Source: an uncultured Methanosarcinales archaeon (lineage in GTDB: Archaea > Nanobdellota > Nanobdellia > Woesearchaeales > JANQNQ01). From it: a stretch of 64,000 nt of DNA. Both the position numbers and the translations under genes were made by a program. The stretch covers positions 36,860 through 100,859 of the forward strand of contig CAZJZJ010000001.1 in the NCBI GenBank assembly GCA_964550525.1, read 5' to 3'. Below the pieces are notes generated by a model. That model saw only the letters and a program-made list of their open reading frames with translations, did no database searches and had not been told where the DNA came from. Positions within the stretch are counted from its first letter, which is position 1. Every line of letters starts with the position of its first letter. Of the stretch, positions 4,522 to 47,200 are shown piece by piece.

Positions 4522-6597
4522 ATGGTAAGTGAAGAGGAATTAGCAAAGGAGATAGTAACAGAGCTTCTTAAGAGATACTCCAAACATGGTATGACTAAAG
4601 AAGAAGCCAGAACTTATGGTGCTAGGTTTGAAGGTGTAACTAGATCTGAAAATGAGCATGTTAGAAGGGTCTGGTACGATAACCATCTTAAGTCTATTCT
4701 TCAAAAAGCTGCTAATTCAGGTGATAATAAGGCGCAAGCATGTTTACAGGGTAGGTTTTATGAAGAAGTAAAAGAAAAAAAGCAAGACGAAAAAACAAAA
4801 CGAAAACAGGCTAAAGCACAAGAAAAAACTGCCAAAGCCCAACTAGAGACTGCTGAAGCTGAAAAAGCTGCAGCACCCCTAAAACTATTCCCCCATGGAG
4901 CATTTGATGTTTTGATTATTGTAGGTATCATCAATCACCTCTCTGATTGGTGGTTTTGGGGTTTTCAAAAGACAGGAATGAGCTTTTTGTTTGATTTTTT
5001 GATTGCGTTTTTCACTTTTCTATTCGCATTCGGCCCATTTAATGATAAAGGTAATATCAATGTTAAAGGCGCGTCTGCCTGTATTGTTGCTTGGTTTATT
5101 GAAGTTGAATTATTTCCAATGCTAGGTAGCCGGATTATTGGTACTTCAACACCAACTCTAATAAAAGTGTTGCTAGCAAAGCATCTCTGGCCAGTATGGG
5201 TGTTTTTTGGGTTGATGTATACTGGAAAAACAGAAGGAGGATTCACTTGGATTGCAAAGTTTGCTAGATGGTGTCTTGCTGTTTTCTGGATTTTTATATT
5301 GATAACACCGATGAAAGCCTACATGATGGATGCTTATTTAGAGGATATGTCAGAAGAACAGAGAGAGGAGGTTTTTGGTGCTGTTACTGAAAGTTTTAAT
5401 GAGAGTAAAACAAGTTGGGCAGCAGTTTGGGAGTGTTGGAGGCATTCGATCTTCGGCTTGGGTGCAGGCCAAGCAGGGGCATACGAGAAATGTATTGAAG
5501 AGAAAAGGAACCCGCCTGAAAAACAAACACAGTACGAGGTTGCTAGGAGCGAGGACTCTATAATTGTTGCTCTTAAACCAATTAAGAGTAAAAAAACATT
5601 CAAAGCAGAAGAAGATATTAAAGTTAGCGCAGTATTTGAGATAAAAAGCGAATCTAAAGATGTTAAGATAGAAGGGGCTTCTTGTTCTTTCAACAAAGGT
5701 CCAAAAGGAAAAGAAGAAAAGGTCGTACAAGGTGTTGCAAAATTTGAAGGGATAGGCATAGAGGGCGGAACTTTTAGGAACAGACAATTTGATTTAACCT
5801 GTGAGTTAAACAAAGGGGCTCTTGAAGAGGGAGAGTATACACCAGTATTTAATGTTGATTTGGCTAAACTAGATAACAAAGCCACTTGGGAACTTTACTT
5901 CATGTATAAAGATACTTTAGATGAATATATTGGGCACACCAGACAACCACAAGAACTAATCAAGAAGATAAGAGCCAGTGAAGAATTTGGAGAACTTGTT
6001 GGTGGGTTGACTATTGGAAAAAGGGGAATAGTATCAACATGCGATGGTGGAGTAGTTTGCCTTAACCTTGGTAGATCTAAAGAACTTATTACACCACCCA
6101 TATATGGAATAACACCTACAAATTTCATAAAGATTTTTGCTAGGGTCAAAAACCAGAATAAAGGTAAAATAAGAAAACAAGGTAAGATTACACTAACAGT
6201 ACCAGAAGGATTTGAAGCTGTCAAAGGAGAGGGAGAAAACGATCGATGCAAGGACTTCGGTAGAGAAAGTATGACAGAAGAAGGTGATAGGCTTTATGAG
6301 TTAGAAAGTAAGATAGACCTCACATCGTTTGGTAAAGACGAGGAAGAGTATGGTAAGGAATTTGCTTCGTGCACTATTGCTGTGACAGGTTATAGAAATT
6401 TGGTTGGTGTCTCCACTGATAAGATTAAGAATGCTGAGATCGAAGTTATGTCTAACGCGCTTGGAAACATCAATGATGCGCATCCTGCTAGGTTCGGTTT
6501 AAGTGTAGATGGTTTTGAATACAGATTAACTGAACGTGCAGAACAAATTACTATAAAAGGATCTGAAAATGAAGAAGACGCGAGAGCAGTTACATAA
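4522..6597 (+). CDS. Hypothetical polytopic membrane protein with an N-terminal cytoplasmic coiled-coil and a large C-terminal extracellular domain
   Basis: A K/E/A-rich coiled coil occupies aa ~80-120, followed by roughly 5-6 TM helices (aa ~125-265) and a ~400-aa hydrophilic C-terminal region. It is encoded between other surface protein genes. Confidence 0.5.
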   Translation: MVSEEELAKEIVTELLKRYSKHGMTKEEARTYGARFEGVTRSENEHVRRVWYDNHLKSILQKAANSGDNKAQACLQGRFYEEVKEKKQDEKTKRKQAKAQEKTAKAQLETAEAEKAAAPLKLFPHGAFDVLIIVGIINHLSDWWFWGFQKTGMSFLFDFLIAFFTFLFAFGPFNDKGNINVKGASACIVAWFIEVELFPMLGSRIIGTSTPTLIKVLLAKHLWPVWVFFGLMYTGKTEGGFTWIAKFARWCLAVFWIFILITPMKAYMMDAYLEDMSEEQREEVFGAVTESFNESKTSWAAVWECWRHSIFGLGAGQAGAYEKCIEEKRNPPEKQTQYEVARSEDSIIVALKPIKSKKTFKAEEDIKVSAVFEIKSESKDVKIEGASCSFNKGPKGKEEKVVQGVAKFEGIGIEGGTFRNRQFDLTCELNKGALEEGEYTPVFNVDLAKLDNKATWELYFMYKDTLDEYIGHTRQPQELIKKIRASEEFGELVGGLTIGKRGIVSTCDGGVVCLNLGRSKELITPPIYGITPTNFIKIFARVKNQNKGKIRKQGKITLTVPEGFEAVKGEGENDRCKDFGRESMTEEGDRLYELESKIDLTSFGKDEEEYGKEFASCTIAVTGYRNLVGVSTDKIKNAEIEVMSNALGNINDAHPARFGLSVDGFEYRLTERAEQITIKGSENEEDARAVT

Positions 6598-23974: not shown

Positions 23975-24049
23975 GCAGATTTATTTTCCATATAGAAGAT
24001 AAAAAACAAAACAAAAAGCATTAAATACTTTACCCACACCCCAAAATAC

Positions 24050-24943
24050 ATGATAGAAATAATTTTCCTTGGTACATCTTGCATGCAACCAACTAAAGAA
24101 AGAAACCATTCCGGTATTTTGATTAGATTCGGCCCTGAAAATATACTTATGGATTGTGGTGAAGGTATCCAAAGGCAGCTTAAGATAGCAGGCATAAAAC
24201 CTGCAAAAATCACTAAAGTGTTAATAAGTCACTGGCACGGTGATCATGTTTTAGGTTTACCTGGACTTATCCAAACCATGGGTGCAAACGAGTATAGTAA
24301 AAAACTATTGATATACGGCCCAGAGAACTCAAAAAACTATATGCAACACATGATGAAAGCTTTTTTCTCTAAAGGCTCGATCCAATTTGAATTAAAAGAA
24401 ATTAACGAAGGTGTATTCTTTGAAAACAATACGTTCAAACTTACGTCTATGCCTCTAAAACACGGCATAAAAACAGTTGGGTTTAGTTTTATAGAGAAAG
24501 ACAGGCGTAGGATTAAGGTTAGTCATATAAAAAAACTAGGTATCCCTGATGGACCGCTATTAGGCAAGCTCCAGCGTGGACAAAAGATTAAGTGGAAAGG
24601 TAAAGAGATTAAAGCAGATGATGTAACCTATGTTGTTAAGGGTAAAAAAATAGCATATATTGCAGACACACTATCATGTAATAATGCAGTTAAACTCGCT
24701 GAAAACGCTGATTTGTTAATAAGTGAGGCTTCGTTTATAACAGAACATCTTGAAAAAGCAGAAGGCTATAAGCACCTAACTGCTAAGGATGCTGCTTTGA
24801 TAGCAAACAGTGCAGGTGCAAAGAAACTGATCCTAACCCACTTTTCTCAACGTTACAAAGAAACTAAAGACATAGAAGAGGAAGCAAAGGATTATTTTAA
24901 CGATGTTACTTGTGCTTACGACTTTATGAAAATTAAGGTGTAA
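24050..24943 (+). CDS. rnz: Ribonuclease Z (tRNA 3'-processing endonuclease, metallo-beta-lactamase fold)
   Basis: It has the HxHxDH motif (ISHWHGDHVLGLPGL) and an N-terminus IIFLGTSCMQPTKERN typical of RNase Z, in 297 aa. Confidence 0.85.
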   Translation: MIEIIFLGTSCMQPTKERNHSGILIRFGPENILMDCGEGIQRQLKIAGIKPAKITKVLISHWHGDHVLGLPGLIQTMGANEYSKKLLIYGPENSKNYMQHMMKAFFSKGSIQFELKEINEGVFFENNTFKLTSMPLKHGIKTVGFSFIEKDRRRIKVSHIKKLGIPDGPLLGKLQRGQKIKWKGKEIKADDVTYVVKGKKIAYIADTLSCNNAVKLAENADLLISEASFITEHLEKAEGYKHLTAKDAALIANSAGAKKLILTHFSQRYKETKDIEEEAKDYFNDVTCAYDFMKIKV

Positions 24944-26551: not shown

Positions 26552-27346
26552 TTATTGTGCGCTTGACCAGGTAGAATCAAACATTTTTTTAAGTGCCGAA
26601 GAAAAATAAGGGGAATTTACCCAAACGCCCACATCATAATTTGGGTGCACGTCGCTGTCGCTTAACAACATAAAGAAGGTTTCTTTGCCATCTACAATAC
26701 ACATCCTGGCGTCGACATCTTTAACAACCCTAACATCTGTTCCCTGCTTAGTTAGTTCCCCAAGGAAGCCGGGGTCTGTTTTTGTTAAAGAGGCAATAAC
26801 CCTTGTTTTGACGCCTTTTTTTGATGCTGTGTTCAACAGCTTAGCAAACTTAGTTTTGCCAGCTACCTCCTCATTACCGATAACCAAAGAAAGATGTTTT
26901 TTAGCAGATTTAAACATAAGCCCAAGTTGATCCATAATATTACTCCTGCCCTTAATGCTGCCAACAAGCTCGTTTGGTTCAATTTGATCTTGGCCTTGCG
27001 AATGCAATAGATTGAGTTCACTCAAAAGCTTACCTTTTTTCAGTTCTTCAACAAGTCTTTCATTCTCTTTTGCTTGTTTTTCAATCTTGTTTTTTATTCT
27101 TTCTAAAACATCCACAGGAGAGACAGCAACATATTTAATAGGTTTACCTGGTTTAGTAATAATAAACCCTTTTCGTTCAAGACTTTCTAACACATCATAA
27201 CTCCTAGAACGGGGGACATTAGCAATATCTGAGAGCTCGCCAGCTGTGCTGGTTCCTCTAGACAACAAAGCAGCCCAGAGCCTACTTTCATACGTATTCA
27301 AACCAAAATCCCTTAATTTTAATAAAAACGCCTTTTCTACGACCAT
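26552..27346 (-). CDS. TrmB family transcriptional regulator
   Basis: It has an N-terminal wHTH (LRDFGLNTYESRLWAALLSRGTSTAGELSDIANVPRSRSYDVLESLERKGFI), a coiled-coil linker and a C-terminal TrmB effector-like domain. The likely start is the Met at 27346 rather than the track start at 27394. It is transcribed divergently from orc1/cdc6. Confidence 0.7.
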   Translation of the reverse strand: MVVEKAFLLKLRDFGLNTYESRLWAALLSRGTSTAGELSDIANVPRSRSYDVLESLERKGFIITKPGKPIKYVAVSPVDVLERIKNKIEKQAKENERLVEELKKGKLLSELNLLHSQGQDQIEPNELVGSIKGRSNIMDQLGLMFKSAKKHLSLVIGNEEVAGKTKFAKLLNTASKKGVKTRVIASLTKTDPGFLGELTKQGTDVRVVKDVDARMCIVDGKETFFMLLSDSDVHPNYDVGVWVNSPYFSSALKKMFDSTWSSAQ

Positions 27347-27499
27347 TGAATCACAACCAGTAGTTTTTAAGGATTTTTTGCTGAAAAAGACCAATTAGCG
27401 CCGATTCAACAAAAAACAACCAATTAAACCAGGTTAAACACATTATAAACCGGTAGTTGAACACCTATTTAAATGTTTTCTTTTTGTTGCTATTAAAGA

Positions 27500-27800
27500 G
27501 TAATTAAAGAGTCACACCTTCCAAACGAAATTTCCAGTTTATTACACGCCCTTTTGGTATCTGACACCTTTGTTTCCTTTGGAGATATCTTGTTTTGTTT
27601 TTTTGTTTTTTTGTTTTTTGTTTTCTATATAGAAAATAATAATAAAAGAAAAAAGTCGACGACAAAAAAATACAAAAAACAAAAGAAAAAACTTAAACAA
27701 CAACTAAAAACAAAGAAGAACCACAATTACACAGGAAACAAAAGGGTAGCAGACAAAAAACAAAAACTTTAAATACCTCCCTTTCGTTTGCAGATTGGAA
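27500..27800. other. oriC: Putative chromosomal replication origin (oriC): inverted ORB-like elements flanking a long T-run/A-run duplex-unwinding element, immediately upstream of orc1/cdc6
   Basis: Four ORB-like boxes are visible. At 27567-27584 the minus strand reads CTCCAAAGGAAACAAAGG. At 27734-27746 the plus strand reads GGAAACAAAAGGG. At 27776-27799 the minus strand reads TCCAATCTGCAAACGAAAGGGAGG. At 27517-27537 the plus strand reads TTCCAAACGAAATTTCCAG. A (T)n-rich stretch at 27590-27625 switches to an (A)n-rich stretch at 27640-27765. The orc1/cdc6, DP1, DP2 gene order follows downstream, as at the Pyrococcus oriC. Confidence 0.55.
27767..27776 (+). promoter_or_regulatory. TATA-box-like element (TTTAAATA) ~27 nt upstream of the orc1/cdc6 ATG, overlapping an ORB-like box
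   Basis: The sequence ctttaaatacc sits at the expected archaeal TATA distance from ATG 27802. Confidence 0.4.
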
Positions 27801-27801
27801 A

Positions 27802-29013
27802 ATGAAAACCGGGGGTTTAGTTAACTTATTTGAAAAATTCTTAGACAGACAACCGCTTTTTAGAAACAAAAGCATCCTGCAATCAGATTATGCACCAAAC
27901 AACATCATACACAGAGACCAACCAATAAAACAACTAGCAAACATACTTATGCCTTCTCTCAGATTAGATAAACCATCCAATGTTTTTGTGTATGGAAAAA
28001 CAGGGACAGGCAAAACATGTGTTGTTAATTACGTAACTGAACAGATGGTTGGTGTAGCCAATAAAAAAAACATTCCATTAAAAATCTTGTATCTGAACTG
28101 TAAATTAAAAAGAGTGGCTGACACCGAATATAGATTAATTGCGCAACTAACAAGGCAGCTTGGTAAAGAGGTTCCACCAACTGGTTTGCCTACAGATGAG
28201 ATATATAAAATCTTCTTTAAAACAATCGACTCAAAAAAACATCTTTATATTATTGTACTAGATGAAATAGACCAACTAATAAAAAAAGCAGGCGACGAGA
28301 TTCTATACAACCTGACTCGGATAAACACTGCGCTAGAGAACTCACAAGTATCTATTGTTGGTGTGTCTAATGATCTCTTTTTTACCCAAAACATTGATCC
28401 TAGAGTAAAGTCGTCTCTATCTGAAGAAGAGATTGTTTTTCGACCCTACAACGCCTTACAGCTGCAAGATATATTAAGACAACGAGTTTTGGATGCCTTT
28501 AAGGAAGGTACAGTCTCAACTGGTGTAGTAGAAAAATGTGCAGCCTATGCTGCAAGGGAGCACGGTGACGCTAGACGGGCTATAGAGCTTATGCGTGTCG
28601 CAGGGGAAATTGCAGAAAGGGAAAACAAGGAAAACGTTGATCTTGAACACATAGACAAAGCAGAAGAAAAAATTGAACGTGATAGGACCATAGACACAAT
28701 AAGTGTGCAACCCAAACAATACCAGGCAATTTTATATGGTGTGGTGTTGCTTTCAGCACAGCAAAGGAAAGAGGGAATTTCAACTGGTGAAGTTTATACA
28801 ATTTATCAAAATCTATGCACAAAGTGCGGCCTGAGACCTCTTACTCAGCGTAGAGTTACAGATATAATCGGGGAGTTTGATATGCAGGGCATAATAAATG
28901 CGAAAACTGTTTCAAAAGGAAGATATGGCAGGACAAGAGAGATTTCTTTGGCAGTGTTAGAAACAACAGTGCCGAAAATAAAGAAAATTATTGAAGCCTC
29001 GCTTAACCTTTGA
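27802..29013 (+). CDS. cdc6: Orc1/Cdc6 replication initiator
   Basis: It has an AAA+ module (Walker A YGKTGTGKTCVV, Walker B IIVLDEIDQL, sensor motifs) and a C-terminal winged helix, in 403 aa. Confidence 0.9.
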   Translation: MKTGGLVNLFEKFLDRQPLFRNKSILQSDYAPNNIIHRDQPIKQLANILMPSLRLDKPSNVFVYGKTGTGKTCVVNYVTEQMVGVANKKNIPLKILYLNCKLKRVADTEYRLIAQLTRQLGKEVPPTGLPTDEIYKIFFKTIDSKKHLYIIVLDEIDQLIKKAGDEILYNLTRINTALENSQVSIVGVSNDLFFTQNIDPRVKSSLSEEEIVFRPYNALQLQDILRQRVLDAFKEGTVSTGVVEKCAAYAAREHGDARRAIELMRVAGEIAERENKENVDLEHIDKAEEKIERDRTIDTISVQPKQYQAILYGVVLLSAQQRKEGISTGEVYTIYQNLCTKCGLRPLTQRRVTDIIGEFDMQGIINAKTVSKGRYGRTREISLAVLETTVPKIKKIIEASLNL

Positions 29014-29028
29014 TCAGAACTTCTGCAT

Positions 29029-30657
29029 GTGTATGTATATAAAATGTTGGATTTAAAAACAGAGCAAAAAAGGAAAGAAATAATCAGGTTTTTCATCAAG
29101 AATAACCTGTTAATTAGTCAGGATTTTCTTGATGACTTAAGCGAGGCAGATATCTTGGAATCTAATCAGGGGTTGTTAGATTTAGCAAAACAAAAAGATG
29201 CTCTGGTTTTAGACAAAGCCCTAAGAAGTAACTTTAGTAAGAATTCTGGTGCCGGGGTTTGTTGGAGAGAGCTTGAAAAATCAAAAACATACAAAGATCT
29301 TGGAAGAGATAACAAATCATATAGCCATTTTGTTGATTATTTGCTTGAACATCAAGATACACAGGCAGTTCATGGTGACATAGAAAATATTGAGCAAAAC
29401 AAGAAGGTCCAAATTATCTCCTCTTACGAAGGAAAAAGTAGGAAAATTGGTGTGCAAGATTTTGTTCAACATTTAAACCTTAGATATAGGTTTTTAGAGG
29501 GGGTCCTTTCAAAAAGACAAGAACTAACAAATATTCTTTCTGTCTCGCGCGTTTTACAAAAAAAAGAAAGAGAAACAGTTTCAATAATTGGCGTGGTAGA
29601 AAGTATGCAATATACTAAAAACAACAACATCATTTTGAACCTAGAAGACCCCACAGGTAAGATTAAGGTATTGGTCAACCAAAATAAACCAGAACTATTT
29701 GAACAAGCGCAAACAATTGTGCCTGATGAGGTTATAGCTGTTATAGGGGTAAATGGCGATAATATCGTCTTTTCTAACAATATTCTTTGGCCAGAGGTAC
29801 CCTTAAATCGTGAACTTAAGAAGTCACCTGAAGAAGAATATGCCTTGTTTTTATCAGATCTGCATATTGGGTCAAACAATTTCTTACCCAGGGAATTTGA
29901 TAAGTTTATTAGCTGGATGAACCAGACGGTTGGCAATGAAACACAAAGAGAAATATCTAAAAAAGTAAAATACGTCTTTATTGTTGGAGATCTTGTTGAT
30001 GGTGTTGGCATTTATCCTGGGCAAGAAGAAGAGCTTGTTATTAACGATGTTAAACAGCAGTACGCAGAATGTGCGAGATATCTAAAACAGATTCCCTCAG
30101 ATGTTGCGATTATCATCTGCCCTGGCAACCATGATGCGCAAAGAATATCAGAACCACAGCCGGCGTTAAGAAAAGAGTTTGTAGAACCTTTGTTAGAATT
30201 ACCGAACGTTACTCTTGTAAGCAACCCAGCCTATGTTTGTATAGGAAAAACAGAAGATTTCTCTGGTTTTGTTGTTTTGTTGTATCATGGTTTTTCATTT
30301 GACTATTATGTTGCAAATGTGGATTATATCAGGGCACATGGTGGTTATGATCGAGCAGACGTTATCATGAAATTTCTTTTACGAAAAAGGCACCTTGCAC
30401 CTACACACACGTCTAGTTTATATCAACCAGACCTTACATCAGATAATCTTGTGATCACTCAGATTCCCGATTTTTTTGTCACAGGACATATACATAAGTC
30501 CGTTATTTCACACTACCGTAATATCACTTTAATCTCTGGCTCATGTTGGCAAAGTAAAACATCTTTCCAACAAAAAGTAGGGCATAACCCTGAGCCCGCA
30601 AGAGTTCCTTTAGTAAACCTACAAACAAGAGAAGCCAAAATATTACGGTTCGGTTAA
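29029..30657 (+). CDS. polB: DNA polymerase II (PolD) small subunit DP1 (calcineurin-like phosphoesterase/exonuclease)
   Basis: The MPP-fold motifs are present: LFLSDLHIGSN, FIVGDLVDGVG, ICPGNHDA and GHIHK. It lies immediately downstream of cdc6. Confidence 0.85.
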   Translation: MYVYKMLDLKTEQKRKEIIRFFIKNNLLISQDFLDDLSEADILESNQGLLDLAKQKDALVLDKALRSNFSKNSGAGVCWRELEKSKTYKDLGRDNKSYSHFVDYLLEHQDTQAVHGDIENIEQNKKVQIISSYEGKSRKIGVQDFVQHLNLRYRFLEGVLSKRQELTNILSVSRVLQKKERETVSIIGVVESMQYTKNNNIILNLEDPTGKIKVLVNQNKPELFEQAQTIVPDEVIAVIGVNGDNIVFSNNILWPEVPLNRELKKSPEEEYALFLSDLHIGSNNFLPREFDKFISWMNQTVGNETQREISKKVKYVFIVGDLVDGVGIYPGQEEELVINDVKQQYAECARYLKQIPSDVAIIICPGNHDAQRISEPQPALRKEFVEPLLELPNVTLVSNPAYVCIGKTEDFSGFVVLLYHGFSFDYYVANVDYIRAHGGYDRADVIMKFLLRKRHLAPTHTSSLYQPDLTSDNLVITQIPDFFVTGHIHKSVISHYRNITLISGSCWQSKTSFQQKVGHNPEPARVPLVNLQTREAKILRFG

Positions 30658-30663
30658 GAGAAG

Positions 30664-33600
30664 ATGGCAGCAGAATCAAAAAAACTTAGCAATTATTTCT
30701 TATCCTTAGATGCAGAACTAAAAAAAGCATATAAAATTGCGTCTGCAGCAAGAAAAAAAGGCCTAGACCCTGAAGACAAAGTTGATGTACCTCTTGCTAG
30801 GAACATGGCACAAAGAGTTGAGGGTCTTGTTTCAGATATGATCCCACAACTAGTCAACACAGGTATGACTAAACGCATAGGCGAACTGGAAAAAGCGTAT
30901 AGCAAACTAGATTGGAGAGTTGCACTCAAAATTGCAGAAGAGGTAGCTAAAGGTAAATTCTGTAAATTTAAAGATAAAAAAGAAGCCATGGAAGCAGGTA
31001 TAAGAACCGGTTTCTCTTACATGACTCAAGGCATAGTGTCTGCACCGCTTGAAGGTTTTATTGGTCTTGAAATAAAAAAACGTAGAGATAGTAAGGGGCA
31101 GTACCTATCAGCTTGTTATGCTGGTCCAATAAGGGGTGCAGGTGGAACAGGTGCAGCATTTTCTATTGTACTAACTGATTATATCCGTTCAGTTATGGGC
31201 TATAGTAGGTATGATCCTTCTGAGCATGAAATAAAAAGGTTTGTTTCCGAGATCTACGACTATCATGAACGTGTAACAAACCTACAATACCTACCAACAC
31301 CAGAAGAAATAGAATTCCTAAGTCAAAAACTTCCTGTTGAAGTGAGTGGAGATCCGACAGAAGAGATTGAAGTTTCAAACTATAAGGATCTGCCTAGGGT
31401 TAAAACCAACCGGATTCGTGGGGGCATGTGTCTTGTAATGGCAGAAGGGCTTGCACAGAAAGCACCAAAATTATGGAAACGGTTGGTCAAATGGGGCAAA
31501 GAATATGGTTTAGATTGGTCATTTTTAGAGGCTTTCTTGATTTTACAAAAAAAGATTAAAGCAAAAAGTGATAAAACAGTGGAAGGAGAAACTAAGATAA
31601 CTCCGAACTATACTTTTATTAAAGACATTGTTGCGGGTAGGCCTGTATTAACACACCCTATGGCCCTTGGCGGGTTTAGGTTAAGGTATGGCCGTAATAG
31701 GTTATCTGGTTTTTCTGCTGCCTCAATCCATCCAAATACAATGAGGGTATTAAACAGCTATATTGCTACAGGCACACAATTAAAAATTGAAAGGCCAGGA
31801 AAAGGAGCAGCACTTACTCCATGCGATACAATAGAACCGCCTATAGTCAAATTAAATGATGGTAGCGTCATTAAATTAGATTCAGAACAAAAGCTTAGAG
31901 ACAACAAAAAAAAGATTAAAGAGATTTTATTCCTAGGAGATATCTTATTTAATTATGGAGATTTTTCAGAGAATGGGCAACGGCTTGCCCCTGCAGGGTA
32001 TTGTAAGGAATGGTGGGTTCAGGAGCTGGAAAAGTCAATAGTAACCACCTTTGGCAGCCTTGACCTAGAAAAAACATCAGGGTTTGCTGGGGTGGAAACA
32101 AAAGTTGTTCAAGACGTAATAGACCACCCATTAACCCACAACATTGGATCTAAGCAGGCTTTTGCGATCTCTACTAAGATGGGTTTGCCATTACACCCCT
32201 TACACACATACTACTGGAACTCTATACAAATAAAACAACTGGGTTCTTTATTAAACTGGTTTAGTAAAGCAAATCTGGTTGATGAGAAAGCCACCAATAT
32301 AAAACTGATCTTGCCCTTGGATAGAGAGCCTAAGCGCATACTTGAGCTTGTAGGAGTCCCGCATTTAGTGGTTTCTTCAGAATATATTGTTATTCTAGGG
32401 GAGGCCCTAATGTCTTTATTATTCAATCTCGGTTTTGAATCTGGGATTGCGGTTAAAGCTGCGATTGAAAAAGTTGCAAAACTAGATGGTAACCAGAAAA
32501 CCATTAATGCAATTAATCTGTTGGCAAATGTAAAGGTCAATGATCTATGTGGAACTTTTGTTGGGGCCAGAATGGGTAGACCTGAAAAAGCAAAAATGCG
32601 GAAACTTACAGGCAACCCGCAGGTTCTTTTCCCTGTTGGTGATCAAGGAGGTAGACTAAGGAGTTTTCAAGCAGCGATGGAAACAGGCAAGATCAAAGCA
32701 GATTTTCCGCTTTTTCGTTGTGATAAATGCAATAAGGATACAATATACAAAACATGTGAACATTGTGGGAAGAAAGCAAAACCAAAATTTTTCTGCCCAA
32801 TATGTGGGATAATTGACTCTGAAACCTGCCCCAAACATGGTAAAACAAAAACGCACGCCAGACAAGAGATAGATATTAAATATTATTTCAATTCTGCATT
32901 AGGTAAATTAGGTATGAATACCTATCCAGATTTAATAAAGGGTGTGAGGGGTACATCAAATAAGGACCATATCCCGGAAAACCTAACAAAAGGCATACTG
33001 CGTGCAAAACATAGTGTGTACGTGAACAAAGACGGTACAACAAGGTATGATATGTCAGAATTACCAATAACTCATTTCAAACCAAAAGAGATTGGTACAC
33101 CTTTAGATAGGTTAAAACAACTTGGTTATACTCACGATATTAATAATAAACCACTTATTGACGTAGAGCAGATTCTTGAGATCTTCCCTCAGGATGTAAT
33201 TCTTCCATCAGGTACACAGACCACAGATGAATCTGCAGATGTGGTTTTGTTGCGTGTTGCAGCGTTATAGATGAGTTACTTGTAAAGCATTATAATCTAC
33301 AGCCATATTATGGGATAAAAAATAAGTCTGATCTTGTTGGACAAGTTATACTTGGTCTAGCACCACATATCTCTGCAGCAACTGTTGGAAGGATAATTGG
33401 TTTTTCAGAAACACAAGGCTGTTTTGCACACCCCCTTTGGCATGCAGCCTTAAGAAGAGACTGTGATGGCGACGAGTGCAGTGTGATTTTGTTAATGGAT
33501 ACTTTACTTAATTTTTCTAGACAATACTTACCTGATAAACGTGGTGGGAGGACAATGGACAGCCCATTGGTACTAACTTCCAAGGTTGTGCCATCCGAAG

Positions 33601-34214
33601 TAGATGACCAGGTTCTTGGTTTAGATGTAACTTGGAAATATTCTTTGGATTTTTACCAAGCCACATTAAACAAAAAGTTTCCATGGGAGATAAAGGTCGA
33701 ACAACTTAATTCAAGAGTTGATACAGAAAAACAGTACGAGAAGATTGGTTTTACCCACGATACTAGCAATGTAAACTCAGGCATTAATTGTTCAGCATAT
33801 AAGACTTTACCAAGTATGAGAGAAAAACTCGAAGGGCAGATGGAGATAGCAACAAGAATTCGAGCCGTTGACGAAAAAGATGTAGCCAGGTTGGTTATAG
33901 AAAAACATTTTCTAAGAGATATTAAAGGCAACCTACGGAAGTTTTCTCAGCAGAAGTTTCGTTGTGTAAAATGTAATGAAAAGTATCGTAGACCACCACT
34001 TATTGGAAAATGTACTGCTTGTGGCGGTAAGATTATTTTTACTATCTCAAAAGGCTCTATTGAGAAGTACCTCGGACCAAGTATTGAGCTTGCTGAAAAA
34101 TTTGATCTGCCACCTTACCTTAAACAAACGTTAGAGCTTACTAAAACCAGGATAGAAGGGGTATTTGGTAAGGAAAAGGAAGTGCAAAGCGGTTTAGGTG
34201 CGTGGTGTGGTTAG
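30664..34214 (+). CDS. polC: DNA polymerase II (PolD) large subunit DP2, encoded in two frames and interrupted by an apparent -1 frameshift at ~33265-33270 (868-aa N-part in frame 1; C-part continues in the -1 frame)
   Basis: The N-part (30664..33270) has DP2-like sequence throughout and ends ...DVVLLRVAAL*. The -1 frame is open from 33231 and reads SVIDELLVKHYNLQPYYGIKNKSDLVGQVILGLAPHISAATVGRIIGFSETQGCFAHPLWHAALRRDCDGDECSVILLMD, which is the conserved DP2 catalytic segment with the Asp triad motif. A single-base slip at TTA|TAG restores an uninterrupted ~1183-aa DP2 of normal length. Confidence 0.85.
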
Positions 34215-35333: not shown

Positions 35334-36185
35334 ATGGTATTAGAATCATTACTAAATCCGGTCAAAGCAGAGAAAAGACCATGGGATGCTTTTTTCTTAG
35401 GTTTGCTATACTCAACTATTGCCATATTCCTATCGTTGTGGGTATTTCCTGACCAAGCTAGTTTAATTTCAGTTTTTCTTATAGTATTAGGAAGTGTACC
35501 ATTGGTCTTGGGAACAATTAGGTTAGAAGAAAAGAAAGATCTGGTGATAGAAAGCGAAAGAGCTATATTAAAAGAACATAGTAAAGCACTATTTTTCTTA
35601 ATTATCTTGTTTCTCGGATTTACAGTTGCATTTGCGTTCTGGTATACGGTTTTGCCTCAGAAAACAGTTAGTCTAGTATATAGTGTACAAGAGCGTACTA
35701 TCCTTAGTATAAACAATCGTGTCTCAGGACAACCAGTGTTTCTTTTTAATTCGTTTACTGCTATACTTATGAATAATCTCAGGGTACTTACATTTTGCGT
35801 GTTGTTTGCCTTTTTGTATGGGGTTGGTGCAATATTTATTCTAACATGGAATGCGTCTGTGGTGGGTGCAGCTATAGGTAACTTTATTCGCACTAAATTA
35901 AGCTATTACACTCAGAGTGTAGGCGCTTTATCCTTAGGGCACTATTTCCAAGCAACTACCCTAGGTTTGTTACGTTATATAGTGCATGGTTTGCCTGAGA
36001 TGCTAGCTTATTTTGTAGGTGGCTTAGCAGGAGGAATAATTTCCATTGCAATAATTAGACATGATTTTAGAACAAGGAAGTTTGAAAAAATACTTTTTGA
36101 TTCATCTGAGTTAGTATTGTTGGCAATCGTTATCCTTGTAATTGCTGCAACAATCGAAGTATATGTTACACCTCTTTTATTCTAG
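35334..36185 (+). CDS. DUF95/SpoIIM-like polytopic membrane protein
   Basis: About 6 TM helices are predicted, with an N-terminal RPWDAFFLGLLYSTIAIFLS pattern typical of SpoIIM-family membrane proteins. Confidence 0.5.
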   Translation: MVLESLLNPVKAEKRPWDAFFLGLLYSTIAIFLSLWVFPDQASLISVFLIVLGSVPLVLGTIRLEEKKDLVIESERAILKEHSKALFFLIILFLGFTVAFAFWYTVLPQKTVSLVYSVQERTILSINNRVSGQPVFLFNSFTAILMNNLRVLTFCVLFAFLYGVGAIFILTWNASVVGAAIGNFIRTKLSYYTQSVGALSLGHYFQATTLGLLRYIVHGLPEMLAYFVGGLAGGIISIAIIRHDFRTRKFEKILFDSSELVLLAIVILVIAATIEVYVTPLLF

Positions 36186-36881
36186 AATCTTTACTCTACC
36201 TGGGCGTATTGTAAACAGGTCTCCTCGTTTCAAGAGCATATCCAATACTTCTTCAGAATTAGTAACATCGCTCCCCTTCTTAACCTCTTCAATATCAGCA
36301 CCATCCCCTGAATCAAGTTCTTTAATAGTCTGAATTACCTTTTCAATACTAGTTGTTTCAACCTTCTCATTAGTATCATCTGTAATTATTTCCTCTTTTG
36401 AAGCATCTAACAGGGCATTGTCCTGATGTTGTACATTAATCTCTTCTTGGTTTATTCTCGGGAGTTTACTATATATCTTCATGTGCTCAAGCTTTCTTAC
36501 TTCAATCCATTTTTTATCTTTTATCTGTTTTATTATCTCCGGTACAATATACTTCTCTGAACCATACTCTCTTGGTCTACCAATAACCGCGATCATATCT
36601 CCTATTTGTAATATGCTTAACATCTTATTCTCTTCAAAAGATCTTAACCCAATTTTACCAGAACCATCATCAATTATTACTGTTTCCTGTTTACCAGCTT
36701 CACCTGTTTGTATTTTCTCTAAAACAACGCCCACTAAATTAACTCTAGAAACTCTTAGATTGTATGGTGTAATAACATAATTTGGTTTCCACCCATCTTC
36801 AACAACATAGTTGCCTTCAAGCAAATCCTTAATCTTAATCTTATAAGCAGTTTGTCTTTTATTATTCTCTGGCATAGTCAT
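36177..36881 (-). CDS. OB-fold protein with a C-terminal winged helix, RPA32-like ssDNA-binding candidate; immediately downstream of mcm on the same strand (6-nt spacer)
   Basis: The N-terminal ~120 aa has an OB-fold-like beta pattern (LVGVVLEKIQTGEAG..VIIDDGSGKIGLRSFEE..IGDMIAVIGRPREYG). An acidic linker follows, then a C-terminal wH-like segment EEVLDMLLKRGDLFTIRPGRVKIL. The architecture matches RPA2/RPA32. This call is inference. Confidence 0.4.
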   Translation of the reverse strand: MTMPENNKRQTAYKIKIKDLLEGNYVVEDGWKPNYVITPYNLRVSRVNLVGVVLEKIQTGEAGKQETVIIDDGSGKIGLRSFEENKMLSILQIGDMIAVIGRPREYGSEKYIVPEIIKQIKDKKWIEVRKLEHMKIYSKLPRINQEEINVQHQDNALLDASKEEIITDDTNEKVETTSIEKVIQTIKELDSGDGADIEEVKKGSDVTNSEEVLDMLLKRGDLFTIRPGRVKILE

Positions 36882-36887
36882 TCCCTC

Positions 36888-38906
36888 TCAAATCCTTTGT
36901 ACAAACCCTGATTTTGGTTCGAATATATCACCGCTTCTTTTTAATTTTTCTATTGCATCTTCAACCTTGTCTTCTTCAATGCCTCTTTCACCTGCTTCCT
37001 TTAATATGTCGTCTATTGGGATGGTTTTACCTATCTTGTTTTCTAAATCGGCTATTATGTCTTTGACAACAATAATCTTACTACGTTGTGATGCAGGGAT
37101 CCCTGTAGATATCTTATCTATGTCAATCTTACCTGTCTCCATATCAGTTGCAACCTGGGCCAAACAAAAATTTAACAACTCAGTCGCCCTTTTAGCATCT
37201 TTCTTACCTACTTTCTTAGCTAACCTTAATTTAGCAGTACCCTCAGCTAACCTGATCAATGCTTCAAGTTGCCTTGGTGATATAGGTACAGATTTAATCC
37301 CACCCTCTTCACTACCTGAAGCCCTCATCTTTAGATAATAATTCTTAATCTCTTCAATTGCGCCATCTGTTAGTACAGGGAAACAAGTCTGCCTAGCATA
37401 AGCAACGTATTTCTTGAGTAAGGTTGTATCAATATCAGGATGTATGTCTTCTGGCTTTTGGTGTAATAATAGTATATGTTTAGCCATACGCTCATCTTTT
37501 TTCTCGTCAGGCAAATCTTTTACAGGAAATATTAAATCAAACCTATTAATCAAAGCTGGCGGCAGGTTTATTTGTTTAGCAATTATGTCGTATGGGTCAA
37601 ACCTGCCAAACTTAGGGTTAGCAGCAGCCAGTACAGTAGTCTCACATCTTAATGTTGCTTGAATATTTGCTTTACTTATGCTAACTGTCTGTTGTTCAAG
37701 TGCTTCATGCATTGCAGCTCTATCTTCTGGGGTCATCTTATCCATCTCATCAATACATACTAGCCCCCTGTTTGCAAGAACTAATGCACCTGCTTCCAGA
37801 GCCCATCCTTTCAAAAACTCGTCTTTAACAACTGCAGCAGTCAAACCTGCGCCACTTACACCTTTACCACTAACATACCTTGCTTTTGGTGCAACCGTTG
37901 ATGCCCTTTTCAACAACTGAGATTTACCTGCACCAGGATCTCCTATTAATAGAACATGCATATCCCCCCTAGTAATCATGCCATCTGGACGTTCCTTTTT
38001 CACACCACCAACTAACTGAAGCAACAATGCTTCTTTTACTTTACCATAACCAAATATAGATGGCGCAACAGATTTAATAAGCTTAGAATATACCTTTGGG
38101 TCGTTTGATAATTTTCTTATTTGTTCTACCTCTTTTTCATTAATCTCCAATTCTAGATAATCTTCTTGCATGGTCTCAACATGGTTTGCTTCAACTAATA
38201 GGTCAAACCTAGTAGACTGAACTCCGCTGTGAAGAGTGATAGGCACTTCTTTGATTATTCCACTTACCTGGATTCTGCTTCCCGGATTGGTTTTTTTATC
38301 AGAAATAGGGCTGACTAGGTCCTCTTTAAGAAATATGTTCATTCTTTTAGGCTGTTCACCGCCTTCAAGATCCTCTGGTGATTCTTCAAGCACTATACCT
38401 TGTACATCTATTAGCTCTTTTCCTATCAATCTAAATTTGCCTTTTCTACCGCAACCACATGTAGCTGGTTCTTTAAACTTTTTATCTACTTGCAAAACAG
38501 AGATAATATTTCCGCAACTTGGGCATTCAAATCTTGCAGATGTAACTTGAGGGCGTACATCAGATTTTTGTCTAACTACTCCCTCTAAAACAAGAAATTT
38601 GTTGATATGTTCACTTCTAATATTCCTAACCATTATCTTTTGTGATTCTGGTAGGTTTGAAACCCTAATCTTAACATCTTTAGCAGCTTTAGGCAGGTCA
38701 AATTGTTCAATTGCTAGTTCTGCAGCTTTGATTAGATCCTCTGGTTGGTCTAGCATTAGATCAGCTAGTTTTGGGTTGAACTTTGATAACTCTGTAAAAT
38801 CTATAACTAGGTAATAAAGAGATTTTCTGAGATTCTTTTGTAGAATAGCTAAATAATTGGTTTCTATAAATTCTTGGAATAGTTTTATTTGTTCGGCTGT
38901 ATTCAT
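36888..38906 (-). CDS. mcm: MCM replicative helicase
   Basis: It has an N-terminal Zn-finger region (CPSCGN...CGCG), Walker A LLIGDPGAGKSQLL, Walker B CIDEMDKM, an arginine finger and a C-terminal wH. The probable start is MNTAEQ at 38906, with a TATA-like tatttaaact ~25 nt upstream. The track ORF extends to 38984 through ORB-like repeats. Confidence 0.9.
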   Translation of the reverse strand: MNTAEQIKLFQEFIETNYLAILQKNLRKSLYYLVIDFTELSKFNPKLADLMLDQPEDLIKAAELAIEQFDLPKAAKDVKIRVSNLPESQKIMVRNIRSEHINKFLVLEGVVRQKSDVRPQVTSARFECPSCGNIISVLQVDKKFKEPATCGCGRKGKFRLIGKELIDVQGIVLEESPEDLEGGEQPKRMNIFLKEDLVSPISDKKTNPGSRIQVSGIIKEVPITLHSGVQSTRFDLLVEANHVETMQEDYLELEINEKEVEQIRKLSNDPKVYSKLIKSVAPSIFGYGKVKEALLLQLVGGVKKERPDGMITRGDMHVLLIGDPGAGKSQLLKRASTVAPKARYVSGKGVSGAGLTAAVVKDEFLKGWALEAGALVLANRGLVCIDEMDKMTPEDRAAMHEALEQQTVSISKANIQATLRCETTVLAAANPKFGRFDPYDIIAKQINLPPALINRFDLIFPVKDLPDEKKDERMAKHILLLHQKPEDIHPDIDTTLLKKYVAYARQTCFPVLTDGAIEEIKNYYLKMRASGSEEGGIKSVPISPRQLEALIRLAEGTAKLRLAKKVGKKDAKRATELLNFCLAQVATDMETGKIDIDKISTGIPASQRSKIIVVKDIIADLENKIGKTIPIDDILKEAGERGIEEDKVEDAIEKLKRSGDIFEPKSGFVQRI

Positions 38907-38949
38907 ATTATTAACACTTCTTTTATAGTTTAAATACCTCACGCGTACA

Positions 38950-39052
38950 CATGTCCAGTGTCCAGTGGCTCCCCCAAACGCCAAAAAACAGATAGCTCAA
39001 GCTATAATAACGCAGTTTTCCACTGGACACCCTGCTTTGTCCAGTGGCTCTA
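38950..39052. repeat. Cluster of ORB-like TCCAGTGG dyad elements between TBP (stop 39058) and the mcm promoter
   Basis: 38954-38975 reads TCCAGTGTCCAGTGGCTCCCCC. At 39015-39030 the minus strand reads GTGTCCAGTGGAAAAC, which matches the ORB core TCCAGTGGAAAC. 39040-39050 reads GTCCAGTGGCTC. All are read directly from the sequence. Confidence 0.5.
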
Positions 39053-39057: not shown

Positions 39058-39600
39058 TTACGTTTTGATCTTCTTTAGGTTTTTAATTAGCTTGTCTAGT
39101 GCTTCTTTCACAGCAGATTCGCTTTTTGTACCTGTACAAACTACTTTTCCGTTACTGAATAAAAGGAAAGTTGCCCTAGCTTCTGTAAGCTTATACACTA
39201 AACCTGGGAACTGTTCTGGTTCGTACTCTGTATTGTGTAGCTTCATTGCAAGGATATTCAGGTTAAGATCCATACCAACACTACCAGAAGCTACAATGTT
39301 CTGTATGTTTACTTTTGGTTGTATCTTAATGTTGATTCCTATCTTTTTTAGACTCTTTATAATCTTCTTGATAGACTCGTGTACCTTGTCTATGGTCCTT
39401 GCACCAGTGCATACAACCTTTCCTGAACTAAATATTAAAGCAGATGTTTTAGGCTCTTTAATCCTAATAACAAGCCCAGGGAATTGTTCTGGGTTGTATT
39501 CAGTGTTACTGAGCGTTGCTGCCATCTTTTCAAGAGGTATAGCATGCTCTAAATCAGTTGAAACCACGATATTTACTACTTTTATGTTTTTTTCAGCCAT
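39058..39600 (-). CDS. tbp: TATA-box binding protein
   Basis: Two direct TBP repeats are present (NIVVSTDL...FPGLVIRIKEPKTSALIFSSGKVVCTGA and NIVASGSV...FPGLVYKLTEARATFLLFSNGKVVCTGT), in 180 aa. Confidence 0.9.
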   Translation of the reverse strand: MAEKNIKVVNIVVSTDLEHAIPLEKMAATLSNTEYNPEQFPGLVIRIKEPKTSALIFSSGKVVCTGARTIDKVHESIKKIIKSLKKIGINIKIQPKVNIQNIVASGSVGMDLNLNILAMKLHNTEYEPEQFPGLVYKLTEARATFLLFSNGKVVCTGTKSESAVKEALDKLIKNLKKIKT

Positions 39601-39951
39601 AATATCGCCCCCATAAGCGTTTTATTTATAAGGGTTTAAAAAGCAAGCTTATTTATAAATACTTTGGTTTTTAAATGAAACCATTCTAAACTAAATGATG
39701 CATTTGGTATGCCCCTTTGATTTCATTTGTAATATTTCTGGTATTAAGCCTTAAAATAGCTGTTTTTGCCTGTTTCAGAAAGTGTTCAAGATGTAACGCC
39801 CCTGGTTTTCCATTGGAAAAACAAGCACCTCAGGCCCTTAAGCAATAAGTTACAAAAATGGTTGCTGCAAAATACATATTCCAAAACAATGGTATGCCTA
39901 TATAATATAACCACAAAATTTAAATATTCTACCTTAACTATCGTTAAGTTC

Positions 39952-44295: not shown

Positions 44296-47200
44296 GTGGT
44301 GAAAAATAAGTTAGCGATTTTATTACTCTTTATTATCATTAGTTTAGTTTCTGTTAGTTTTGTGAGTGCACGTGCGTGTGATAATATATGGAAATGGCGA
44401 AATCATTGGTGTCCTATTGTACCTACTTCAGAAGATTTCCGAGAAGTTTCAATGGATGATGATTTTAATTTCCAGGTATTAAGTATTTGTTATGATGAGA
44501 CCAATACGGGCGTTTATTATACTTATTTTTATCTGGATGAAGATAAAGATGTAAAGTTTTATTTGACTAGTACAGGTTCTGCAGGTGTTAAATTATCTAT
44601 TGATGGCAAAAAAGTAGCTACACACGGGAAAGAAGCAGAAGTCGTTCTTGAAAAGGGATGGCATTATGCAGAGATTGTTATCCGAAGATGGGGGCATATT
44701 AATTTTGATGTAAGCCTTGAAGTAAACGATGGAACATTATCAAAAATAGCCACAAAAGCAGGTACAATGGAAGGATGTGAATGGGACGAAGATAAGGATG
44801 GTTTTGTTGAAGGAGACGATTATACTGAGGATGATTGTGATGATTCTGATCCAACTATCTACCCTTTTAGAATTTTTGAAGAAGAGCCATGCGATGGGAT
44901 ACTTCACGATTGTAAGAATAGGCAAAGATTTGAAATTGATGGCGAGTCTAGAGAAGCTGTCTATAACGAAATCTGTGAGGGTGATGATAATCTTGCAACA
45001 TGTGAAAGCCGTTGTGGTGAGTGGGGTGAAACAATAACACCTGACACGAACAGATGTTGTGGTGATGATAGCATCAGTGAATTTGGTTTAATACAAGAAA
45101 AGAATGATGATGAAACGATTTGTAAAAAAGGCGAAGATTCGTGTGATTGGGGATGGCTAACCACATCAGAGGCAGGTTCAGGTAAGATACTTACTGTAAG
45201 AAGAGATATTGTAAAAAATGAAGACATTATAATGGATAAAAACCGGGAAATAATCAAACAACAAGGCAAAACAAAATTTGTACCCTGTGGTAATTTTTCA
45301 GCCGTAGTTGAGAAATATGGCCCCAATAATTGTACTGTTAATGTAGATTTTGGTGCAATTATATGTGAAAATCCGCCACTCTCAACAGAACTTGTAGAAC
45401 TGGGCGGTCCAAATAAGGATAACTTATCTATAGAAAATGAAGATGGCGTTTACCAAAAAAAGATTGATTTTTATATCTATTTAAATGAAGATATAACAGC
45501 AACAAAGACTGCAAAGATTTCTGCTAAAGCTGACAACAAATTAACATACTTACTTGATGGTAAACAAATCTTTAGTTTTACAAAAGAAGATCTTGCAGTG
45601 TGGGATCAGGAACCAGAAGTCTTTGAAACAGAATTTAAATATGGTAGCCGTGCTGGTTGGCGACACATTAGTTTACTTCTTGATAACTGGGGTGCTTATG
45701 GTGGCCTTGAAGTCTGGCACGAAATAGAGGGTTTTGAGACCCCTATTACAGATGTAGATACTGCAGGAGAATGCGATAATATTATTCCTTTAAGCGAGGC
45801 AGAACCAGTTACTGTACCAGACCCAGACATCAAATCAACAATCTATGATGTTATCCCTTTCAATAAAAAATGGTATGTGTGTGATCCAGAGGGAACTATT
45901 AGGTTGGATCCTGGTTATGGGACGAATATATTGGATGAATTTGATACACCACAGGTAGAGACCTCTACTGCTCTTCAATCAACTATCTCTTTGGATAGCC
46001 AGGGTGCTGGCGATACTGATTCTTATATTGGAGATGGGATTGATATTGATGCTGTTGCAATTGAAGATGCTTTAGAGGGGTTTAGTATTGGAGGTAGTCC
46101 TGTATCTGCCTCTTTAGGGAGTAGTGGTACTCCAGGGAGCAGGAGCAGTACTGAAATTGAGTATGATGCTTTTATGTGTTACAAAGAAGGTGATATGGGG
46201 TCAATTGGAGAATGTTGTGGCAATGATTTAGGTATCTGTTTTAACAAAGGAATATTAGGGCTACCAAAAGTAAGGCGTATGGGGGAGCCGTTATCCTATA
46301 TCGTCGAAGTCCATGATTTAAACAAGAAGAAACACAACACAGTTCTTCAGATACCTGTAAAACATAAAGCACGTGAAGATATTCCACCCTATACCTATTC
46401 GATTCCCGGTGGCGATGTGCCAATTTTACATTATACAAATTGGAAAGGGTTCAAGGCGCTTGAATTCTATTTTGCTTCTTTACGTCCAGCTTTAGTTAGA
46501 CTGATCATTAAAGATACAAATGAAAAAGAACATGATTTTGGTCCAATCCTAAAATACGCTATTGAAAATAAAAGAATAACTGAAGACGGTGAACTAGCAC
46601 CCTCGCAACAGATGCGACACATTTATATTCCTATTGATGGCGAACTCGGGGAAGTAGATAAAGGCAATATCTCTGAGATAATATTTACAGCAAGGAAGCA
46701 AGATCTACCAGCGGACTACATTGAAACAAAGATTATAGACAAAATGGATCGTGAAAGCTACAATGTATGGGTTTTCGATAGAATGCATCTTACCTATGAT
46801 TATGAGACAGAATCTGAAAAAAATAAGTACTGTTCCTTTACAAAGGAATGGGTTTATGACTTTGATGTAGAAGATAATGAAGCAAACCCCATCTGTAACC
46901 AGATACCTTCATTCACTTGGACAGGTACACAATGTTGTGGTGATGATATCGTATATACAGATGAAACATACGAGGATGAAAGCGGTGGCTGCTGGAAAGG
47001 CAACTTTATTGCAGATGATACAACATTGATGGAGATAGAATTTGAACATGATACCTATAACGGAAAACACACAGATATCTGTAGAGGTACAAGATGCGAA
47101 TACCCTATTTTATATCAAGATTGGCCTTCTGAAGTAACTGAGATAGGCGATGTAAGTACAGATTCTGATTTTTATAATGTTAGGATAACAAACACAGAGG

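Follow-up and report, generated by a model that had tools for sequence, protein, structure and literature searches.

Where does replication of the chromosome begin in this Woesearchaeal (DPANN, Nanobdellota) genome? The question is raised by an intergenic interval of 455 bp (27347-27801) directly upstream of the initiator gene orc1, also called cdc6, in the 64-kb stretch of DNA analysed here (35% GC; hereafter the window). A preliminary description of the same DNA had called this region a probable oriC. Our analysis agrees with that call: inverted origin recognition boxes (ORBs) surround an AT-rich, strand-asymmetric DNA unwinding element (DUE) beside orc1, and the layout is kept in relatives. 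We consider it likely that the interval is the Orc1-dependent chromosomal oriC of this genome.

Boxes and unwinding element upstream of orc1

In 25 related DPANN (Woesearchaeota/Nanobdellota) loci we inspected the 500-700 nt that precede orc1 and found a recurring element with the consensus TTCCAnnnGAAAnnnnGGTGT. Patterns derived by eye were weakly enriched in the window: CANNGGAAACNAAAGG, with up to 2 mismatches, gave 5 matches where 2.4 were expected, and TYCMANNNGAAA gave 8 where 5.4 were expected. We therefore used a position weight matrix (PWM) trained on the relatives instead. The matrix has 31 columns and was built from 66 instances of the consensus (up to 3 mismatches) in the 25 relatives, with the window excluded. 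Both strands of the window were scanned, with 200 dinucleotide-preserving shuffles as the null. Five matches reached at least 15 bits, against 0.29 expected and a maximum of 2 in the 200 shuffles; the best shuffle score averaged 13.7 and never exceeded 23.7.

The density of 4.2 matches per kb upstream of orc1 in the relatives is there by construction, since the matrix was trained on those regions. The results from the window, and from a second set of loci centred on the gene for TBP, are independent of the training set. Outside their orc1-upstream regions the relatives held 10 matches of at least 14 bits in 211 kb (0.047 per kb). At the TBP loci, which the matrix had not seen, the density was 1.25 per kb upstream of TBP and 0.021 per kb elsewhere. 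ORB-like words are confined to these two replication-gene promoter regions. The preliminary description had proposed checking whether such words run through AT-rich intergenic DNA generally, and they do not, occurring at 0.02-0.05 per kb outside the two regions.

The best match in the window is ORB-L, whose score was reached by none of the shuffles (0/200). A match as strong as ORB-R turned up somewhere in 24 of the 200 shuffled windows; we put the chance of finding one within 200 bp of the top match on the order of 4e-4. The TTCCA-type ends of ORB-L and ORB-R point inward to an AT-rich gap and their G-rich ends point outward. All three words picked out in the preliminary description were located correctly: CTCCAAAGGAAACAAAGG (27567-27584, minus strand), GGAAACAAAAGGG (27734-27746, plus strand) and TCCAATCTGCAAACGAAAGGGAGG (27776-27799, minus strand). 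The overlap of the third with the orc1 promoter also held, and its register did not. It had been set from the TCCA at 27796-27799; the relatives favour CTGCAAACGAAAGGGAGGTAT at 27773-27793 (ORB-P), in which TGCA replaces TCCA, as in one relative (L012). A mini-ORB at 27519-27531, absent from the earlier list, is among the four best 14-mer core sites in the window, and its 13-mer, TTCCAAACGAAAT, is the core of the right-hand ORB in another relative (L004).

ORB-P lies between the putative TATA box of orc1 and the start codon, ending 9 nt before the ATG. It is a weak match, with about a 0.8% chance of such a score in that promoter zone. The TATA+ACC-ORB(-) junction that it forms recurs in seven relatives (L002, L003, L008, L012, L020, L025 and L026) with 15 bits or more and in five others with 7-8 bits. 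In about half of the loci an ORB(-) is fused to the orc1 TATA box through this junction, as in the window; in the remaining loci it is the ORB(+) that comes as close as 14-60 nt to the orc1 ATG. The TATA box ends 27 nt ahead of the start codon, which implies that the mRNA is leaderless or nearly so.

The boxes belong to a known family. In gel shifts, Cdc6/Orc1 binds ORB1 of Pyrococcus furiosus, which reads TTCCAGTGGAAATGAAACTCTGGGGGG on the corresponding strand and has TTCC and GAA as its invariant core, and the mORB of Sulfolobus (Saccharolobus) solfataricus, TTTCAGATGAAAC, is bound by Orc1-1. The window boxes share with both a 13-bp core, TTCCAnnnGAAA(T/C), and a G-rich tail. When the cores were compared with the TTCC and GAA invariants of TTCCAnnnGAAAT, ORB-L (CTCCAAAGGAAAC) and the mini-ORB (TTCCAAACGAAAT) had both, and ORB-R (TTACACAGGAAAC) and ORB-P (CTGCAAACGAAAG) were each one or two bases off TTCC. 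The G-rich extension 3' of the core reads GGTGT in ORB-L, GGGT in ORB-R and GGTAT in ORB-P. The tail of Sulfolobus ORBs is a string of Gs, compared with GGTGT/GGGT here, and the 4 nt between core and tail in the window match the spacing in Aeropyrum ORBs. In Pyrococcus the tail follows 9 nt after the core.

Between ORB-L and ORB-R is a 142-bp gap of 80% AT, and its top strand runs from oligo(T) at the left to oligo(A) at the right. The T-run block (27590-27628) is 39 nt long and 82% T; the A-run block (27634-27772) is 139 nt long, 65% A and 10% T. The two blocks cover some 183 bp in all, close to the 180 bp or so of T runs followed by A runs in the preliminary description. The strongest T-to-A switch in the 64 kb falls at 27626, with a statistic of 1.36 (about 7.5 standard deviations) against 0.73 for the next. 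By nearest-neighbour free energy, 27590-27654 ranks among the least-stable 0.1% of windows and the inter-ORB segment 27590-27726 among the least-stable 1% (z=2.5). We also considered whether the T-rich and A-rich arms might form a cruciform or hairpin. The single-strand DNA fold was unconvincing (z=-1.84), and 11 of 200 shuffles folded equally well.

A perfect 16-bp palindrome, TTTTCTATATAGAAAA, sits exactly at the T-to-A switch. The aligned instances give TTTWCWATATWGWAAA, of which the palindrome at 27621-27636 is the sole exact match in the window. Of the 22 inter-ORB gaps, 8 contain the core CWATATWG, where shuffles of the gaps predict 0.45 (maximum 4), and 7 of these 8 have more T than A on the left of the core and more A than T on the right of it. 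Compared with further AT-rich DNA from these loci, the core is only 2.7-fold enriched (p=0.047). The palindrome is plausibly an accessory site, with modest support. TrmB is unlikely to be its binder because the palindrome is kept at loci where trmB is not a neighbour. A copy with 2 mismatches, TTTTCCATATAGAAGA, is present at 23984-23999, followed by an A-run and a TATA-like box, 50 nt upstream of an unrelated gene for a metallo-beta-lactamase-fold protein (24050-24943); with 2.25 such matches expected, this copy is within chance.

Table 1. Features of the probable origin region, the orc1-polD genes and the TBP-MCM locus, in window coordinates. Scores are those of the 31-column matrix unless stated otherwise.
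Feature	Position	Strand	Sequence	Remarks
TrmB-family regulator gene	26552-27346	-		PF01978 TrmB, E=9.7e-21; divergent from orc1
mini-ORB	27519-27531	+	TTCCAAACGAAAT	Core without G-rich tail; 14.8 bits with 14-nt core PWM
ORB-L	27564-27584	-	CTCCAAAGGAAACAAAGGTGT	28.9 bits; TCCA end faces DUE; PWM match spans 27559-27589
T-rich DUE arm	27590-27620			G(T)n repeats on top strand
Palindrome	27621-27636		TTTTCTATATAGAAAA	Perfect, 16 bp; at T-to-A switch
A-rich DUE arm	27637-27726			Composition as given for block 27634-27772
ORB-R	27727-27747	+	TTACACAGGAAACAAAAGGGT	16.8 bits; inverted relative to ORB-L; PWM match spans 27722-27752
Putative orc1 TATA box	27768-27775	+	TTTAAATA	Read from the sequence; TATA-like boxes at same position in relatives
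ORB-P	27773-27793	-	CTGCAAACGAAAGGGAGGTAT	8.8 bits; fused to TATA box; PWM match spans 27768-27798
orc1/cdc6 initiator gene	27802-29013	+		Orc1-1 class; Pfam Cdc6_C, Cdc6_lid, AAA
PolD small subunit DP1	29029-30657	+		Pfam DNA_pol_E_B, Metallophos, OB fold
PolD large subunit DP2	30664-34214	+		Pfam PolC_DP2 N-terminal, central and catalytic domains, across two ORFs
OB-fold gene	36177-36881	-		Same operon as TBP and MCM
MCM helicase	36888-38984	-		Pfam MCM, OB, lid, C-terminal archaeal winged helix
TBP	39058-39600	-		Pfam TBP, E=1.4e-62
Proximal secondary Orc1 box	39712-39732	-	TTACAAATGAAATCAAAGGGG	15.4 bits
Distal secondary Orc1 box	39798-39818	-	TTCCAATGGAAAACCAGGGGC	15.9 bits

Layout in relatives and in characterised origins

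The nearest genomes are metagenome-assembled genomes of Woesearchaeota/Nanoarchaeota (Nanobdellota, DPANN), with Orc1 identities of 51-63%; an identical Orc1 protein is present on a 6.3-kb metagenome scaffold. At 22 of 26 loci the sequence upstream of orc1 contains neighbouring ORB(-) and ORB(+) boxes, 54-585 bp apart, that enclose a gap of 75-94% AT. In the other four, the contig is truncated (L012), an N gap interrupts the region (L025), or the partner falls outside the scanned zone (L003 and L004). The left box of L003 is 858 nt upstream, past a tandem-repeat expansion, and the right box of L004 runs into the start codon. At L003 (about 4560-4780) the AT-rich origin region is replaced or expanded by GTTGTTGTTATGTTATTATAAT-like tandem units and at L025 (about 225-560) by GTTCTTGTGTTAGTCTTGTT tandem units, in both of these close relatives between the distant left ORB and the right ORB.

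The layout is independent of the upstream gene, be it TrmB, SpoIIM or DP2. TrmB is upstream of orc1 only in L002 and L004-L006 and is therefore not an obligatory part of the origin; SpoIIM takes this place in L007, and in L009, L010 and L013 DP2 is upstream of the origin on the opposite strand. On the other side, the orc1-DP1-DP2 synteny is kept in most relatives, with DP1 directly after orc1. The preliminary description had likened the cdc6-DP1-DP2 order to the Pyrococcus oriC neighbourhood, and both our Pfam calls and the published description of Pyrococcus agree with this.

The initiator itself is of the appropriate class. In searches for protein structure matches against PDB, the window Orc1 matched S. 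solfataricus Orc1-1 (2qby_A) with E=1.5e-101 and Aeropyrum pernix ORC1 (2v1u_A) with E=1.1e-95; the match to Orc1-3 was far weaker (E=3.6e-41). By these matches it is an ortholog of Sulfolobus Orc1-1 / ORC1. In the alignment to 2qby_A the Gly-Leu of the initiator-specific motif, the recognition-helix Arg in QRRV and the wing Arg in GRYG are conserved. These correspond to G120/L121 (initiator-specific motif), R341 (helix-turn-helix) and R365 (wing) of S. solfataricus Orc1-1, mutation of which lowers affinity or specificity for mORB. A preprint lists Orc1 as a single-copy core gene across Nanobdellota. The window also encodes, 9 kb from the site, an MCM that carries the archaeal C-terminal winged helix called for by the Sulfolobus loading model.

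Sulfolobus (Saccharolobus) oriC1 resembles the window in having an adjacent gene of the orc1-1 class, three boxes of which two are inverted around a DUE, and a cis element in the middle of the DUE; its layout is an ORB3-DUE-ORB2 core plus ORB1 beside orc1-1. The box core and G-rich tail are of the same type, and Orc1-directed loading likewise has an MCM C-terminal winged helix to act through. In Sulfolobus islandicus, ORB2 and ORB3 are inverted around the DUE and each is individually required for firing. An Orc1-1 monomer occupies each ORB in a set polarity, and the pair guides MCM, via the C-terminal winged helix of the helicase, onto the DNA between the boxes.

The two differ in what lies between the boxes. 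The DUE of the window consists of strand-asymmetric T runs and then A runs, unlike that of Sulfolobus oriC1. At the Sulfolobus centre is ucm, an 11-bp asymmetric element (ATTATACAAAC) that is recognised by the nucleoid protein UBP and without which the origin does not fire. At the centre of the window DUE is the 16-bp palindrome TTTWCWATATWGWAAA, which is unrelated in sequence, and no match to the 10-11 bp ucm motif (A)TTATACAAAC within 1 mismatch was found in 27347-27801. Judged by its sequence and place, the palindrome would be a positional analogue of ucm only.

The oriC of Pyrococcus abyssi and P. furiosus has the same order, oriC-cdc6/orc1-dp1-dp2, and likewise combines the mini-ORB core TTCCAnnnGAAAT with longer ORBs that form an inverted repeat on either side of AT-rich DNA. 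Mini-ORBs are numerous in Pyrococcus, where dp1 contains a second cluster; the window has one mini-ORB, and its second cluster is upstream of TBP-MCM. Single ORB matches do occur inside DP1 in two relatives (L004 and L006), recalling the Pyrococcus cluster. The window has an ORB-like match of 17.7 bits inside the DP2 C-terminal coding region (33679-33699, plus strand). No counterpart of at least 14 bits was found in the relatives for which this region was fetched, and the match is probably due to chance.

The interval also has the features by which published work recognises CDC6-type origins: it is intergenic, next to an initiator gene, contains ORBs and has the ORB(-)/DUE/ORB(+) pattern. The first three place it under the Type I rule of the CDC6-type oriCs in Ori-Finder-Arch/DoriC. 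A 2026 preprint annotated 17,472 archaeal oriCs automatically, Nanobdellota included, and reported the ORB(-)/DUE/ORB(+) pattern in 67% of its CDC6-type predictions; another preprint rotated 208 complete Nanobdellota genomes to ORC1, and origin sequence was not analysed there. An ORB(-)/DUE/ORB(+) arrangement beside orc1 is the canonical archaeal origin, so the element in the window is ordinary in kind and its identification is confirmatory.

If the oriC1 of Sulfolobus and the oriC of Pyrococcus are taken as guides, monomers of the Orc1-1 type would bind each box with fixed polarity, and those on ORB-L and ORB-R would have opposite orientations. Orc1 in its ATP form would recruit MCM through the C-terminal winged helix onto the inter-ORB DNA from both sides, leaving the helicase N-tiers of two MCMs facing each other. 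The T/A-run region would then melt and replication would run bidirectionally. Orc1 at ORB-P, between the TATA box and the start codon, would repress its own gene. More speculatively, the T-richness of the top strand on the left and of the bottom strand on the right would make both leading-strand templates oligo(T). This may favour purine-initiated priming outward from the palindrome, which could mark the departure point of both leading strands.

Boxes at the TBP-MCM operon and other readings of the probable origin region

Two further boxes are found in the divergent intergenic region upstream of the operon that encodes TBP, MCM and an OB-fold protein. They are in tandem, 86 bp apart in the window. 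Of the 80 metagenome loci with TBP homologs that we examined (L029-L108), 73 extend 300 nt or more upstream of TBP, and 45 of these 73 carry one ORB or two between -107 and -571. Nearly all of the boxes (54/58) are oriented as TBP is, the spacing was 80-85 bp in every one of 12 pairs, and the consensus in relatives is TTCCAnAGGAAAnnAnGGGGG. In L057 and L058 mcm and TBP lie apart, and one ORB adjoins the TATA box directly upstream of mcm. The boxes are in tandem, the spacer between them is ordinary in composition and some copies abut a TATA box; all of this points to putative regulation of TBP/MCM by Orc1 rather than to a second origin there. A half-origin is an alternative that the boxes suggest, and the DUE-type palindrome that precedes the pair in several of the relatives leaves some probability for a second or vestigial origin.

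This promoter region contains other conserved features. TBP has two TATA boxes (39620-39631 and 39649-39663, minus strand), among them a strongly conserved GTATTTATAAATAAG word that most relatives share, and a G-rich, Shine-Dalgarno-like GGGGG(T)G precedes its ATG; these features may reflect TBP autoregulation. Between the two ORBs, about 20 nt upstream of the proximal box, is a near-palindromic word of the TTAAGSCTTAA type (about 39755-39775 in the window). It is conserved in L030, L033, L041, L042, L073 and L087 and may be a site for another factor.

Several observations weigh against placing the origin upstream of orc1. Cumulative GC skew, which the preliminary description had proposed to check over the whole replicon, follows the orientation of the genes within the 64 kb analysed and shows no extremum at 27.6 kb. 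We also regressed GC and AT skew at third codon positions (GC3 and AT3) with a correction for gene strand and an intercept, and scanned for a breakpoint in a model whose weights are dominated by giant genes. The GC3-skew step was significant, and breakpoints anywhere from 21 to 51 kb fitted equally. Most genes on the left side are on the plus strand, where they would meet a leftward fork head-on. The inter-ORB DNA is not the stability minimum of this AT-rich window in the nearest-neighbour model, because A-tracts are relatively stable in that model. ORB-R and ORB-P are degenerate, and ORBs of the same family occur upstream of TBP-MCM with no inverted partner; boxes alone therefore do not prove an origin. 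That the origin fires is something we infer from sequence. A canonical origin is reported to be dispensable in some archaea such as Thermococcus kodakarensis.

The alternative that survives best, which we nonetheless regard as unlikely, is that the boxes are operators and nothing else. Orc1 would autoregulate orc1-polD and perhaps trmB, the T and A runs would be promoter spacer, and replication would start elsewhere or independently of an origin. The fusion of ORB-P to the orc1 TATA box fits this explanation, as do the apparent operators of the same family upstream of TBP, the copies that abut the mcm TATA box in L057 and L058, and the absence of a skew signal in the window. Paralogs of Orc1, such as Orc1-2, are also known as transcription regulators. 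However, a pure operator has no need of inverted boxes 54-585 bp apart around a gap of 75-94% AT, an arrangement kept at 22 loci and shown to be necessary for the function of Sulfolobus oriC1. ORB-L is also at least 218 nt from the orc1 start, beyond the promoter.

Somewhat less probable again is a second or main origin upstream of TBP-MCM (39.6-39.95 kb), with the module beside orc1 being one of two or dormant. This would account for two ORBs of at least 15 bits next to the helicase gene, for at least one ORB in 45 of 73 relatives, and for a palindrome of the DUE type just upstream of the pair in L049, L063, L075, L102 and L104. The orientation of the boxes argues the other way: they are in tandem, with 54 of 58 pointing the same way, and no inverted partner of at least 14 bits was found. 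The spacer is ordinary, at about 63% AT as estimated by eye, and holds another conserved word, and where mcm is separated from TBP the single ORB abuts its TATA box as an operator would. A chance origin of the ORB-like words in AT-rich DNA, with the T/A runs as mere low-complexity sequence, accords with the weak enrichment of the eye-derived patterns (5 vs 2.4 and 8 vs 5.4 expected) and can be set aside given an independent matrix score of 28.9 bits at ORB-L (0/200 shuffles), densities of 1.25 per kb upstream of TBP vs 0.021 elsewhere and of 0.047 per kb at orc1 loci outside the training regions, and conserved positions and orientations.

With the interval upstream of orc1 read as the origin, a broader scheme can be sketched, which we offer tentatively and hold to be rather less likely than not to be correct as a whole. 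In Woesearchaeota, and in Nanobdellota more broadly, a single Orc1 might control a minimal replication regulon. Inverted ORBs would mark the origin, the TATA-fused ORB would repress orc1, phased tandem ORBs about 84 bp apart would control TBP-MCM(-OB-fold), and the lineage-specific palindrome would be bound by a dimeric factor in a role like that of ucm/UBP. ORB-P and the TBP/MCM boxes may have a parallel in Orc1-2 of the Sulfolobales, which binds promoter-proximal sites to regulate genes. Unlike with Orc1-2, a single-copy Orc1 of the initiator class would do both jobs here, and the boxes are canonical ORBs, not the Orc1-2 damage-response motif.

We found no description of the lineage consensus, the TATA-fused box, the TBP-MCM boxes or the palindrome in the open-access literature that we searched. 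A well-supported oriC brings with it the lineage-specific ORB consensus TTCCAnnnGAAAnnnnGGTGT and a fixed point for genome orientation, and it supports peak-to-trough estimates of growth rate from metagenome read depth. It also provides substrates for recombinant Orc1 and MCM in vitro. DPANN archaea are uncultivated or grown only with hosts, and we know of no DPANN replication origin that has been examined experimentally. The TBP-MCM boxes and the palindrome at the DUE switch could open the question of how a single initiator couples licensing to expression of the helicase and TBP.

Neighbouring genes

Gene identities were assigned with Pfam. The TrmB gene starts at ATG 27346 in the ENA call (264 aa), and its ORF can be extended to a TTG at 27394. 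Genes for Hjc and TFE are located upstream. Two ORFs that overlap the origin region, 27554-27772 (plus strand) and 27693-27875 (minus strand), are probably artefacts of the T/A runs. An Rfam scan of 26-41 kb matched no family, and a scan for sigma-70 promoters and terminators, models that are irrelevant to an archaeon, found nothing enriched.

DP2 is broken by a 1-nt frameshift at about 33265-33272, where RVAAL* is followed by IDELLVK in the next frame. At this point the reading frame is continuous in all 8 relatives examined. The frameshift is probably an assembly or sequencing error; less probably, it is real or DP2 is a pseudogene.

In many relatives a TBP-MCM-OB-fold-SpoIIM block neighbours the oriC-orc1-polD block, and their relative orientations differ. 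The order in L007, for example, is TBP-MCM-OB-SpoIIM-oriC-orc1, which we compared with 27.6-39.9 kb of the window. The two blocks form a rearranging replication island.

Further to the right, three giant ORFs follow one another on the plus strand, at 44296-49101, 49173-53345 and 54115-62487 (1601, 1390 and 2790 aa), and dominate composition statistics in the right half of the window. Pfam was run on the first and last of these and found PKD in the 1601-aa ORF and CarboxypepD_reg, Ig-like and PEGA domains in the 2790-aa ORF. All three look like the giant surface proteins that are common in DPANN genomes.

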